Source of the DNA: Escherichia coli | Lineage (GTDB): Bacteria > Pseudomonadota > Gammaproteobacteria > Enterobacterales > Enterobacteriaceae | DNA length: 64,000 bases | Direction: 5' to 3' (one strand) | NCBI RefSeq assembly: GCF_013122565.1 | Contig: NZ_CP053258.1 | Part shown: one piece after another, positions 48,799 through 61,240 of the stretch | How positions within the stretch are numbered: position 1 is the first letter of the stretch | Layout: every line of letters begins with the position of its first letter | Notes under the pieces: model-generated | The model's input: only the letters and a program-made list of their open reading frames with translations | Told to the model about the DNA's origin: nothing | Databases searched by the model: none | Program-made: the position numbers and the translations under genes

Positions 48799-48891
48799 GG
48801 TGAGGTGGCCGAGAGGCTGAAGGCGCTCCCCTGCTAAGGGAGTATGCGGTTAAAAGCTGCATCCGGGGTTCGAATCCCCGCCTCACCGCCA
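48799..48891 (+). tRNA. serV: tRNA-Ser (anticodon GCU), long variable arm, encoded CCA
   Basis: GGTGAGGTGGCCGAGAGG...CTGCTAA anticodon loop...GGTTCGAATCC T-arm...CACCGCCA. Confidence 0.95.
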
Positions 48892-48894
48892 TTT

Positions 48895-48971
48895 GCATCC
48901 GTAGCTCAGCTGGATAGAGTACTCGGCTACGAACCGAGCGGTCGGAGGTTCGAATCCTCCCGGATGCACCA
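48895..48971 (+). tRNA. argV: tRNA-Arg (anticodon ACG), copy 1
   Basis: GCATCCGTAGCTCAGCTGGATAGAGTACTCGGCTACGAACCGAGCGGTCGGAGGTTCGAATCCTCCCGGATGCACCA. Confidence 0.95.
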
Positions 48972-49105
48972 TATTCTACGTACTTTCAGCGATGAAGGTA
49001 TGGAAGAGGTGGCGGTAATAACCGCAGGCACCAGGGAGGATAACGTTGCTTTAGCAACGGCCCGAAGGGCGAGCCGCAAGGCGAGTAATCCTCCCGGATG
49101 CACCA
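48972..49105 (+). repeat. Spacer unit A (about 134 nt) ending in a pseudo-copy of the tRNA-Arg 3' end (AATCCTCCCGGATGCACCA); second copy at 49525-49657
   Basis: Two copies of roughly 85% identity by eye, both ending in the last 18-19 nt of tRNA-Arg; internal hairpins retained in both. Confidence 0.8.
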
Positions 49106-49169
49106 TCTCTTACTTGATACGGCTTTAGTAGCGGTATCAAAAAATCTGCAGTAAAGTAAGTTTCCCGAT

Positions 49170-49246
49170 GCATCCGTAGCTCAGCTGGATAGAGTACTCG
49201 GCTACGAACCGAGCGGTCGGAGGTTCGAATCCTCCCGGATGCACCA
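49170..49246 (+). tRNA. argY: tRNA-Arg (ACG), copy 2
   Basis: Identical 77-nt tRNA-Arg sequence. Confidence 0.95.
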
Positions 49247-49308
49247 TCTCTTACTTGATATGGCTTTAGTAGCGGTATCAATATCAGCAGTAAAATAAAT
49301 TTTCCGAT

Positions 49309-49385
49309 GCATCCGTAGCTCAGCTGGATAGAGTACTCGGCTACGAACCGAGCGGTCGGAGGTTCGAATCCTCCCGGATGCACCA
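49309..49385 (+). tRNA. argZ: tRNA-Arg (ACG), copy 3
   Basis: Identical 77-nt tRNA-Arg sequence. Confidence 0.95.
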
Positions 49386-49447
49386 TCTCTTAATTGATAT
49401 GGCTTTAGTAGCGGTATCAATATCAGCAGTAAAATAAATTTCCCGAT

Positions 49448-49524
49448 GCATCCGTAGCTCAGCTGGATAGAGTACTCGGCTACGAACCGAGCGGTCGGAG
49501 GTTCGAATCCTCCCGGATGCACCA
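49448..49524 (+). tRNA. argQ: tRNA-Arg (ACG), copy 4
   Basis: Identical 77-nt tRNA-Arg sequence. Confidence 0.95.
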
Positions 49525-50841: not shown

Positions 50842-52425
<1,584 letters not shown>

Positions 52426-52433
52426 CAGAAAAG

Positions 52434-52506
52434 AAAAAGGCCACTCGTGAGTGGCCAAAATTTCATCTCTGAATTCAGGGATGATGATAACAAATGCGCG
52501 TCTTTC
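52434..52506 (-). ncRNA. micA: MicA (SraD) Hfq-dependent sRNA, antisense in the gshA-luxS gap
   Basis: Minus-strand sequence GAAAGACGCGCATTTGTTATCATCATCCCTGAATTCAGAGATGAAATTTTGGCCACTCACGAGTGGCCTTTTT matches MicA as I recall it, including the terminator hairpin and U-tail. Confidence 0.9.
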
Positions 52507-52574
52507 ATATACTCAGACTCGCCTGGGAAGAAAGAGTTCAGAAAATTTTTAAAAAAATTACCGGAGGTGGCTAA

Positions 52575-53090
52575 ATGCCGTTGTTAGATAGCTTCACAGT
52601 CGATCATACCCGGATGGAAGCGCCTGCAGTTCGGGTGGCGAAAACAATGAACACCCCGCATGGCGACGCAATCACCGTGTTCGATCTGCGCTTCTGCGTG
52701 CCGAACAAAGAAGTGATGCCAGAAAGAGGGATCCATACCCTGGAGCACCTGTTTGCTGGTTTTATGCGTAACCATCTTAACGGTAATGGTGTAGAGATTA
52801 TCGATATCTCGCCAATGGGCTGCCGCACCGGTTTTTATATGAGTCTGATTGGTACGCCAGATGAGCAGCGTGTCGCTGATGCCTGGAAAGCGGCAATGGA
52901 AGACGTGCTGAAAGTGCAGGATCAGAATCAGATCCCGGAACTGAACGTCTACCAGTGTGGCACTTACCAGATGCACTCGTTGCAGGAAGCGCAGGATATT
53001 GCGCGTAGCATTCTGGAACGTGACGTGCGCATCAACAGCAACGAAGAACTGGCGCTGCCGAAAGAAAAGTTGCAGGAACTGCACATTTAG
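52575..53090 (+). CDS. luxS: S-ribosylhomocysteine lyase LuxS (AI-2 synthase)
   Basis: 171-aa ORF ([14 protein letters not shown]) with HTLEH metal motif. Confidence 0.96.
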
Positions 53091-53107: not shown

Positions 53108-53140
53108 GCCGGGCAGGTGACACCACCGCCCGGTTTTTTT
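53108..53140. terminator. Bidirectional intrinsic terminator shared by luxS (+) and the HD-Pnk gene (-): GCCGGGC..GCCCGG plus T7
   Basis: Hairpin and T-tract read in sequence; the HD-Pnk stop codon overlaps the T-tract. Confidence 0.75.
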
Positions 53141-54251
53141 ACCTTTCAATCACCCGATACTCCACGCTATGTGCTTCATCAGGTTGAGGAACTTCCAGCC
53201 TTGAGGCCATCCGCAGCACGACCGCTTCAGGAACTGCATACTCGCGTCTGGCATTTTGCTGCTTCCATTGCGTCCATGGCACTTCCAGATAAACGATTTT
53301 TACTCGTGCGCCGTAAGCCGTAAACAGACTGATGAGCTGGCTACGCAGCTGGCGGGTAATGTTCGTTGCATTCCAGATGAACGGCTTTTTCTGGCGTAAA
53401 AAAACGCGTGCCTCTTCTTTTGCCTGTTGCACAATACGCCCGGTGGCGGTTTTGTCGTCCGGACTGGCATTGATTCGCCGCCGCATATCATCAAGGCTGA
53501 TAACGTCAATTCCCTGGCACTGTTCACTGATATAGCGATCTTTGCCCATACCCGGTAAGCCACACAGCAAAATAACCTCAAAAGGTTCAGCCCCCCAGGG
53601 AACAAAATCAGGAGAACTTTGCTCATGAGTCAGGTAGTGCCAGCGTGCGGAATCAGAAACGAACGGGCGCACTTTTCCCCAACACTGTTGCTCCTGGCAA
53701 AACAGCTCGAACAGATCGATGCGTTCCAGCATTGATTGCTGATCCGGGCTTTGGCGACCAAGCAGATCGGCACGAGCAAGCAAAGCGAGCAGACGCGTGT
53801 CGATGCGCATTGCAGCCGTGAGCAGCAAACGCTCCGGTTCCGGACGTTCCAGTAACCACAGCGGTAACCCATGCAGACGCACCAGCGCAACAATTTGCTC
53901 GCGTAGCACGAACGGCGTAGGGATATCGCGCCATAAAATTTGTCGGGCCGTCAATTCGCCCCGCCGAGCATGGCCAGGCGACTGAATACGTCCGTTTTCC
54001 TGCACGGTAGTGCTGCGCTTTTCAACATCATGCAATAACGCCGCCGCCCATAAAACTTCCTGCTGTTGAGCGGGGAGTTGCTGGAATTCTGGCAGAGTAA
54101 CGAGGGCGTTCAGCACCATTTCGGTATGCACGCCGACGTCGCCTTCACCATGATGCTCCGGGTCTTGTGGCGTGTGATGCATCTCCTCAACCCAACTGAA
54201 ACGCTGGAGTAGTGTCGACCAGCGTTTATCGTCGGTAAGCTGCCAAATCAT
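53139..54251 (-). CDS. Bifunctional RNA/DNA end-healing enzyme candidate: N-terminal HD-domain phosphoesterase fused to a C-terminal P-loop polynucleotide 5'-OH kinase (HD-Pnk type)
   Basis: 370-aa ORF; HD motifs ([18 protein letters not shown], later His/Asp); Walker A GLPGMGKD followed by an acidic DVISLDD segment; ATGA overlap with the upstream ligase gene; absent from the K-12 luxS-emrB junction as I recall it. Confidence 0.75.
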
Positions 54252-54955
54252 GACTGTTCTCCATAAGCGAACTCATGGGCCATCCGCGCCCGTTGCCAGT
54301 GTCGTTTCCAGTGCACGGTGGTTTTGACATGATTTTTGCGCACATACTTGAAGACGTTATGCGAAAAGTCAGCGACGGAAAACGCATCACGATTCCGGCT
54401 GACAATGCCTTCCAGCGTACAGGGTTGCCCGGTTTGTGTATCCCAGGGATCGAACGCGCCGCGCGCATTGGTCAGTGCCAGAAAATCACGTTGCCAGCTT
54501 TTTTCATCATTCCCCGGCTGCGGACCGGAGATTTCGGGAACGCAGGGGAAATCAAACAGAGCGGCGTAAAACTGCACCTCTTCCCAGCTCAGCCACATAT
54601 CCTGGCAGCGAACGGCAAACAGGTAAAAGTCCTGTTCCAGCGCGCGGTATTCAATGGAATGAACGGCGTAGAGATTTTCACCAAACAGTTCCAGATCGCC
54701 GAGATCGTTTTTCAGCAGTTGCCAACGCTGGCGAATTTTATAAGTCCATGCCGACTGCGTAGGCGCAGCATGGGAACGGGCAAACACGCCGTAGCGGTTA
54801 AGGCAGTTATTTTCGCCGTCGAGTTTTTCTGTGTGCACCAGTTGCGCAATGGCCTGTAAATCCTGCCAGTAATCGGCGTTAATGCGGTCATCGCTGGTGG
54901 TGCCAGGGGAGAAAGGATAATGCCAGGTTCTCCCGTATTTTCGTTGGGTATTCAT
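54248..54955 (-). CDS. ATP-dependent RNA ligase-like covalent nucleotidyltransferase (small Rnl-type)
   Basis: 235-aa ORF with motif I KLDG (Lys44), FGEN motif III-like, EGIV motif IV, FKYVRK motif V; stop overlaps the HD-Pnk start. Confidence 0.75.
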
Positions 54956-55176
54956 AATAATCCATTATTTTGTGTGTAATAAATGTACGCCCGCGAGGGT
55001 GCGAGTTATGGGGTTAAAAGAAAAATGTGAGTATCACCCGCGAAAGCGAGGGCGAAGGAAAAAGAGAATTAACAACCTGAGCGAATGCTCAGAACCGGTT
55101 AATGGTGAATGGAAGAGTTTGGGGCGGCGAAAAGATACACCGAATGAGTGGATAAAACAACCGTTTGCAGAATGAG

Positions 55177-55202
55177 CAAATAAAAAGGGAGCCGAAGCTC
55201 CC
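55177..55202 (-). terminator. Intrinsic terminator of emrB (GGGAGC-TTCG-GCTCCC hairpin plus T-rich tail on the minus strand)
   Basis: Hairpin 10 nt downstream of the emrB stop. Confidence 0.75.
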
Positions 55203-55212
55203 TTTGACAACC

Positions 55213-61159: not shown

Positions 61160-61240
61160 GTAGGCATGATAAGACGCGCCAGCGTCGCATCAGGCATTGT
61201 GTACAGAGCGGCGGATGCGGCGAAAACGCCTTATCCGCCC
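61160..61240. repeat. REP/BIME elements between ygaY and proX
   Basis: GTAGGCATGATAAGACGCGCCAGCGTCGCATCAGGCA and GGCGGATGCGGCGAAAACGCCTTATCCGCCC palindromes. Confidence 0.75.

Follow-up and report, generated by a model that had tools for sequence, protein, structure and literature searches.

The 149 bp that separate gshA from luxS in Escherichia coli hold a small RNA gene, micA, that runs against gshA and ends almost at its stop codon. This arrangement raises the question whether one palindrome terminates both transcripts, micA on the minus strand and gshA on the plus strand, as had been proposed in a sequence-only reading of this DNA. Most of the locus is already known: literature from 2001 to 2010 describes MicA, the control of micA by sigma-E, its location in the gshA–luxS spacer and the way it overlaps the luxS leader in antisense. 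As the sequence found here is the reference sequence, it has little weight as a discovery, but MicA had been correctly recognized from the raw sequence alone. Below, the identity of the locus is established, its elements are described and the termination of gshA is weighed. The window refers to the whole 64-kb stretch of DNA that was analyzed, and all positions are window positions.

Identity of the micA Locus

Three genes define the locus:

50869–52425, plus strand: gshA coding sequence (glutamate-cysteine ligase), 518 aa, TTG start, TGA stop at 52423–52425 (ORF list, RefSeq, K-12 b2688)
52431–52506, minus strand: micA gene, +1 at the G at 52506 (Rfam, K-12 identity, Term-seq)
52563–53090, plus strand: luxS Shine–Dalgarno sequence GGAGG (52563–52567) and coding sequence (52575–53090), 171 aa (ORF list, RefSeq)

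The spacer between the two plus-strand ORFs spans 52426–52574 and carries a full-length MicA gene on its minus strand. At 52435–52506 on the minus strand, the Rfam model RF00078 (MicA), whose gathering score is 41, scores 83.9 bits (E = 1e-12). The model is covered from end to end (positions 1–75 of 75), and this is the best Rfam match in the whole window. The match is not due to chance; the MicA fold has a z-score of -3.06. Moreover, the segment 52380–52620, comprising micA and both flanks, is 100% identical to K-12 MG1655, with no difference over approximately 240 nt. The curated MG1655 record places micA (b4442) at 2814802–2814874, between luxS and gshA, and because of the identity b4442 maps to 52434–52506 in the window. 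A complete MicA on the minus strand, antisense between gshA and luxS, had been claimed from the sequence, and this is confirmed by the full-length RF00078 match and the identity to K-12; direct alignment to annotated MicA, run on K-12 micA, gave no mismatch. Sequence identity, structure, motifs, complementarity to ompA and synteny all point to MicA, there is no contrary evidence, and every defining feature of MicA open to in silico testing is present. The region is almost certainly the canonical micA locus of E. coli.

It is extremely unlikely that what resembles MicA in this strain is a copy that has decayed or lost its function. Nothing was found in favor of decay, and it is ruled out by the identity to the functional K-12 gene, which includes promoter and terminator. 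The covariance model matches over its full length, and, among 5426 complete genomes of E. coli, 5423 keep the spacer with ≥95% identity (megablast), with flanks annotated as gshA and luxS. PGAP merely leaves micA unannotated: in the PGAP-annotated RefSeq genomes of E. coli the spacer has no feature at all, and micA appears only in the curated K-12 record.

Anatomy of MicA and Its Promoter

The sRNA and its control region are made up of the following elements:

52542–52560, minus strand: AT-rich element upstream of the micA -35 box, inside the luxS 5′ UTR, ending 2 nt before the luxS Shine–Dalgarno sequence
52513–52539, minus strand: sigma-E-type promoter of micA, -35 GAACTC (52539–52534), 16-nt spacer, -10 TCTGA (52517–52513)
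52483–52499, minus strand: single-stranded seed, MicA nt 8–24, pairing with ompA mRNA from -21 to -6, the ribosome-binding region
52463–52484, minus strand: stem-loop 1, nt 23–44 (MFE fold, Rfam consensus structure)
52457–52462, minus strand: AU-rich linker AAUUUU, nt 45–50, between both stem-loops (sequence)
52439–52456, both strands: palindrome GGCCACT-CGTG-AGTGGCC, 7-bp stem, 4-nt loop, -11.0 kcal/mol on either strand
52429–52438, minus strand: terminator U-tail TTTTTCTTTT, in RNA UUUUUCUUUU, nt 69 onward (terminator scan, tail score)

The promoter is predicted from a -35 box resembling GGAACTT, a spacer of about 16 nt and a -10 box resembling TCTGA or TCAAA at the mapped +1, all of which are found here; the -10 box ends 6 nt ahead of the start of micA. 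The micA promoter has been published as strictly sigma-E dependent (Udekwu and Wagner, 2007, PMC1851643), and the AT-rich element is noted in the legend of Fig. 3 of the same paper.

Two stem-loops and a U-tailed rho-independent terminator, the architecture of an Hfq-dependent sRNA, are present in the fold and in the terminator scan. The linker between the stem-loops is presumably the contact for Hfq. The palindrome is the terminator hairpin of MicA (nt 51–68, GGCCACU-CACG-AGUGGCC), in which 52439–52445 pair with 52450–52456, and it is also contained in the sense RNAs of gshA and of luxS P1. The 3′ end of micA lies at 52434 according to the K-12 annotation (73 nt) and at 52431 according to Term-seq (76 nt); the latter end, K-12 position 2814877, is the same in three conditions (Adams et al., 2021, PMC7815308).

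The seed was compared with the leader of K-12 ompA. With RNAduplex, nt 7–25 within MicA nt 1–26 pair with ompA -22 to -5 at -23.1 kcal/mol, a value reached by 0 of 1000 shuffles, and the computed site agrees with the published ompA target site (reviewed in PMC4618604). When RNAduplex was given the entire ompA leader and all of MicA, the duplex was unrealistically long and 14 of 300 shuffles did equally well; therefore the seed-only test was used instead.

From these elements, the known course of MicA action can be laid onto the locus. When the envelope is stressed, or once cells are in stationary phase, RNA polymerase with sigma-E would start at 52506 on the minus strand and yield a 73–76-nt Hfq-dependent sRNA. 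Nucleotides 8–24 would pair with the ribosome-binding region of ompA, blocking translation and promoting decay; other published targets of MicA are envelope mRNAs and phoP. Transcription would stop at the hairpin 52439–52456 and its U-tail, leaving the 3′ end 5–8 nt from the gshA stop. Expression of an RNA of approximately 72 nt, Hfq binding and repression of OmpA are taken from literature on the identical K-12 sequence and may be expected to apply here.

Conservation across Enterobacterales

Homologs were searched for in GTDB species genomes with an exact 24-nt stretch from the MicA 5′ region, which gave at least 120 loci; since the homologs were chosen by this match, their 5′ invariance exists by construction. 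The genera among the matches listed are Escherichia, Salmonella, Citrobacter, Enterobacter, Pantoea, Erwinia, Serratia, Yersinia, Rahnella, Hafnia and Edwardsiella. The order gshA (plus), micA (minus), luxS (plus) is found in every sufficiently long locus of these at least 120 Enterobacterales loci. Both distances are kept as well. Among the matches listed, 112 loci have both neighbors: the gap between the gshA stop and the hairpin is 8–15 nt in 104 of them, with a mode of 13 that is also the value in the window, and the gap between the micA +1 and the luxS ATG is mostly 67–79 nt (68 in the window). The promoter boxes GAAC/AAAC and GTCTGA are kept in 112 species among the matches listed.

Over the 70 distinct homologs among the matches listed, 95.4% of the cells in the MicA stems are paired, against 30–54% in slid controls; stem-loop 1 taken separately reaches 92%, and the terminator stem is invariant in these 70 except for one compensatory change, A-U to U-A, at the seventh pair. 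Because most pairs are invariant, covariation gives the stems modest, thin support.

Overlapping Transcription Units of micA and luxS

The published luxS start sites can be carried over to the window, as its DNA is the same as that studied by Udekwu (2010, PMC2956633). Two of them matter here:

52228–52243, plus strand: -10 region (TCTATGATT) and TSS of the putative sigma-S-dependent promoter luxS P1, inside the 3′ end of gshA (published, mapped onto the window)
52492–52506, plus strand: proximal 5′ end of luxS mRNA (R3, TSS of De Lay and Gottesman), overlapping the MicA 5′ end by 14–15 nt

The published P1 start is a G at -332 from the luxS AUG (Udekwu, 2010, PMC2956633), and position -332 in the window is the G at 52243. 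The coordinates of the proximal end (approximately 52492/3) were derived from the overlap stated in the same paper. Transcripts from P1 read through micA and the hairpin, and long luxS transcripts are converted to a short form in a manner dependent on MicA and RNase III, with no detected effect on LuxS protein (Udekwu, 2010, PMC2956633). A review summarizes the same picture of micA and luxS (PMC4618604).

The estimate that the MicA 5′ end lies about 70 bp from the luxS start holds, as 68 bases separate the +1 at 52506 from the ATG at 52575. The claim that the control regions of both genes overlap can be put more strongly than it was, and is already published (Udekwu, 2010, PMC2956633): the micA promoter region 52513–52560 sits in the luxS 5′ UTR, with the ATG on one side and the published 5′ ends of luxS on the other. 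The description of MicA as divergent from luxS is incomplete where the transcripts are concerned. Because luxS transcripts start within micA or upstream of it, the transcription units are face-to-face and overlapping rather than merely divergent. With micA filling the 149-bp spacer, the sRNA would be cis-antisense to the luxS leaders and to any gshA 3′ UTR.

A weak promoter-like site on the plus strand at 52484–52513, from a sigma-70 consensus scan, was rejected; one such site was found against 1.1 expected from shuffles, and none of the published 5′ ends of luxS coincides with it.

One Palindrome and Two Convergent Genes

The sequence-only reading let the terminator hairpin begin 8 nt after the gshA stop. 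This distance is correct for the annotated 3′ end of micA, from which the gshA stop is separated by the 8-nt spacer CAGAAAAG (52426–52433), but the stem itself starts after 13 nt. The two genes nevertheless come very close: the Term-seq 3′ end of MicA is just 5 nt from the gshA stop, and the MicA U-tail comes within 3 nt of the stop codon.

That one palindrome terminates both genes stands for micA. For gshA, the tail score and the terminator scan speak against it, and it is upheld only for one 3′ end mapped in M63 medium. In the direction of micA, the tail TTTTTCTTTT has a d'Aubenton-Carafa-type score of 4.98, at the 99.99th percentile of all 15-mers in the window. In the direction of gshA, the tail AAAATTTCAT (AAAATTTCATCTCTG) scores 0.37, at the 47th percentile and thus about the median; what is read there behind the hairpin on the plus strand is the linker 52457–52462, a poor tail. 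A scan of the locus with the terminator consensus called the minus strand only, and no plus-strand terminator. The same holds for the 112 species among the matches listed, in which the scores range from 4.28 to 5.28 in the micA direction and from 0.01 to 0.75 in the gshA direction. The asymmetry of the U-tail is present in 112 of these 112 species, with 7 of 8 T in the MicA tail in all of them. As the plus-strand tail is the complement of the AU-rich linker and stem-loop 1 of MicA, it is constrained by MicA function.

A GC-rich hairpin common to two convergent units is thus present, with its 7-bp stem and -11.0 kcal/mol on both strands, and a U-rich tract 3′ of the hairpin is present on the minus strand only. 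The hairpin is a canonical intrinsic terminator for micA only, and the sequence speaks against an intrinsic terminator that works in two directions. We infer that the palindrome is not a true two-way intrinsic terminator. A sense-direction hairpin that lacks a U-tract could act as a pause site, as an exonuclease stop or as a weak terminator of gshA.

3′ Ends of gshA-Strand Transcripts

Term-seq data from K-12 (Adams et al., 2021, PMC7815308, supplementary file 1), whose sequence is identical here, place three 3′ ends on the gshA strand:

52461 (K-12 2814847), plus strand: 3′ end in M63 at OD 0.4, ...GUGGCCAAAAU, 5 nt past the stem, 178k reads
52447 (K-12 2814861), plus strand: 3′ end in LB at OD 0.4, within the tetraloop, 35k reads
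52394 (K-12 2814914), plus strand: 3′ end in LB at OD 2.0, in the gshA ORF, 31 nt before the end of the stop codon, 306k reads

MicA has a 3′ end just past the hairpin in all three conditions; the gshA strand has one in M63, not in LB (PMC7815308). It is the M63 sample that favors a genuine bidirectional terminator of micA and gshA, acting intrinsically or by head-on collision of RNA polymerases. The M63 ends at 52461 and 52431 overlap by 31 nt and are centered on the hairpin, which is the geometry described for bidirectional terminators, and the gshA-strand end is abundant, with 178k reads vs. 123k for MicA (PMC7815308); termination in M63 may be efficient. Besides, the two convergent genes share one hairpin of -11 kcal/mol at 13 nt from the gshA stop, in a spacing that is conserved, and a polycistronic gshA-luxS message has never been reported (Udekwu, 2010, PMC2956633). 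Moreover, terminators of the collision type, as reported by Ju et al., are described as unlike intrinsic ones (bioRxiv 10.1101/2022.10.23.513370). We nevertheless consider two-way termination unlikely. The gshA direction lacks a U-tract here and in all 112 species among the matches listed, the terminator scan calls the minus strand alone, and the LB ends on the gshA strand are not behind the hairpin: one is in its loop (52447) and one in the ORF (52394). Transcripts from luxS P1 at 52243 pass the hairpin into luxS, and trimming by a 3′-to-5′ exonuclease would leave an end 5 nt past the hairpin just as readily.

The latter point leads to another explanation, namely that the gshA-strand 3′ ends near micA are mainly processing products rather than termination sites. 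The gshA 3′ UTR or the luxS P1 leaders would pair with MicA or with MicA read-through RNA, followed by cutting by RNase III or by exonuclease trimming up to the duplex or the hairpin. We hold this explanation tentatively, at somewhat less than even chances. It agrees with the published processing of long luxS transcripts that depends on MicA and RNase III (PMC2956633) and with 3′ ends that move with the growth condition, from 52461 to 52447 and 52394. The end at 52447 lies in the loop and can therefore not be a product of hairpin-driven termination. Furthermore, a region of Rho termination is listed at K-12 2815245, i.e., 52063 in the window, on the strand that is sense for micA (Adams et al., 2021, PMC7815308, supplementary file 2), which implies that read-through or other antisense transcription enters gshA. 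Against processing speaks the stability of the MicA terminator hairpin, which would need to be opened for a full duplex. Processing and two-way termination are not fully exclusive. For the sense RNA, the palindrome appears to be at most a leaky or condition-dependent determinant of the 3′ end, a conclusion that is less secure than the identity of the locus.

A bolder possibility, which we regard as quite improbable, is that the MicA palindrome is a condition-dependent switch for the sense-strand RNA. As long as micA is inactive, the 3′ end of gshA mRNA would be defined or protected by the hairpin (52461, M63). Under heavy sigma-E-driven transcription of micA, the sense 3′ end would be moved upstream into the gshA ORF (52394, LB stationary phase), either by converging polymerases or by pairing with MicA or read-through antisense RNA, so that gshA mRNA would be truncated and the sigma-S-dependent luxS P1 leader attenuated. 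If true, envelope stress would be coupled to the synthesis of glutathione and AI-2 via transcription and RNA 3′-end formation. As to converging polymerases, an RNA polymerase stalled at 52394 head-on against one at 52431 was tried and rejected: their separation of 36–37 nt is a poor fit to the cryo-EM classes of head-on collided E. coli RNA polymerases, in which 26–31 bp lie between the active sites and the RNA is backtracked. Because of this distance, collision as the origin of the 52394 end is kept as a speculation of low probability.

Two details of the maps deserve mention by themselves. The end at 52394 in LB stationary phase falls at C|G with six times the MicA signal of that sample (K-12 Term-seq); it lies 151 nt downstream of the sigma-S-dependent luxS P1 start at 52243, and no terminator-like structure precedes it. 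The end may belong to a stable short RNA of stationary phase or to a luxS leader that has been attenuated. The Rho-termination region at 52063 (minus strand) is approximately 370 nt past the MicA terminator and antisense to gshA.

Altogether, the idea of one palindrome as two terminators is not supported by the sequence, in which the one-sided U-tract is conserved across Enterobacterales, and it is supported by the published 3′-end maps in a condition-dependent manner only.

Other Features of the Window

Downstream of luxS, the interval up to emrB, just a 63-bp spacer in K-12, holds two overlapping minus-strand genes at 53139–54955. The first encodes a protein of 370 aa whose C-terminal part matches the kinase-like domain AAA_33 (Pfam, E = 6.7e-31), the second a 235-aa RNA_ligase protein (PF09414, E = 3.6e-28), and together they look like a kinase/ligase pair of the RNA-repair type. 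The cassette is found in 999 of the 5426 complete E. coli genomes, with a best identity of 98.1%, which is below that of the flanking core genes. A PADLOC search of both genes gave no match to a defense system. Directly downstream of the emrB stop, at 55175–55205 (minus strand), lies a hairpin, GGGAGC-TTCG-GCTCCC, followed by TTTTTATTT, which looks like the emrB terminator in this strain. It stands in place of the hairpin common to luxS and emrB in K-12 (AAAAAAGCCAGTTCAAATGAACTGGCTT), where the end of the luxS transcript has been mapped by Term-seq (Adams et al., 2021, PMC7815308).

Two other features concern RNA genes. At 61163–61240 (minus strand), Rfam finds naRNA4 (RF02564, nucleoid-associated ncRNA 4 or CssrE) with 73.5 bits vs. 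a gathering score of 59.5. Upstream of yqaB-yqaA-gshA, five tRNA genes lie at 48799–49521 (plus strand), annotated in a related RefSeq genome as one tRNA-Ser followed by four tRNA-Arg; the last four matches all score 67.1 bits.

Comparison with Known Systems

The closest known system is MicA (SraD) of E. coli K-12 itself (b4442). Its sequence, length, two stem-loops, sigma-E promoter and U-tailed terminator are identical here, as are the ompA-complementary seed and the location between gshA and luxS, and the locus itself shows no difference. Only farther downstream does the strain depart from K-12, by the two additional genes between luxS and emrB.

The cis-antisense arrangement of micA and luxS described in E. 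coli (Udekwu, 2010, PMC2956633) involves the same DNA, with P1 at -332 and a MicA overlap of 14–15 nt; it is also known from Salmonella (Kint et al., 2010, as cited in PMC4618604). By analogy, the locus analyzed here may have the same potential for processing by RNase III and for transcriptional interference.

The bidirectional terminators of Ju et al. (2019), with ynaJ-uspE as a model in the follow-up preprint (bioRxiv 10.1101/2022.10.23.513370), likewise consist of a single GC-rich hairpin between convergent units. The two transcripts overlap at their 3′ ends over the hairpin, as they do here in M63. The preprint names neither micA nor gshA. Unlike in those terminators, one partner at the gshA–luxS locus is an sRNA of 76 nt whose own terminator is canonical in every respect, while the gshA direction has no U-tract, luxS P1 transcripts read through the hairpin and the gshA-strand 3′ ends shift with the growth condition.
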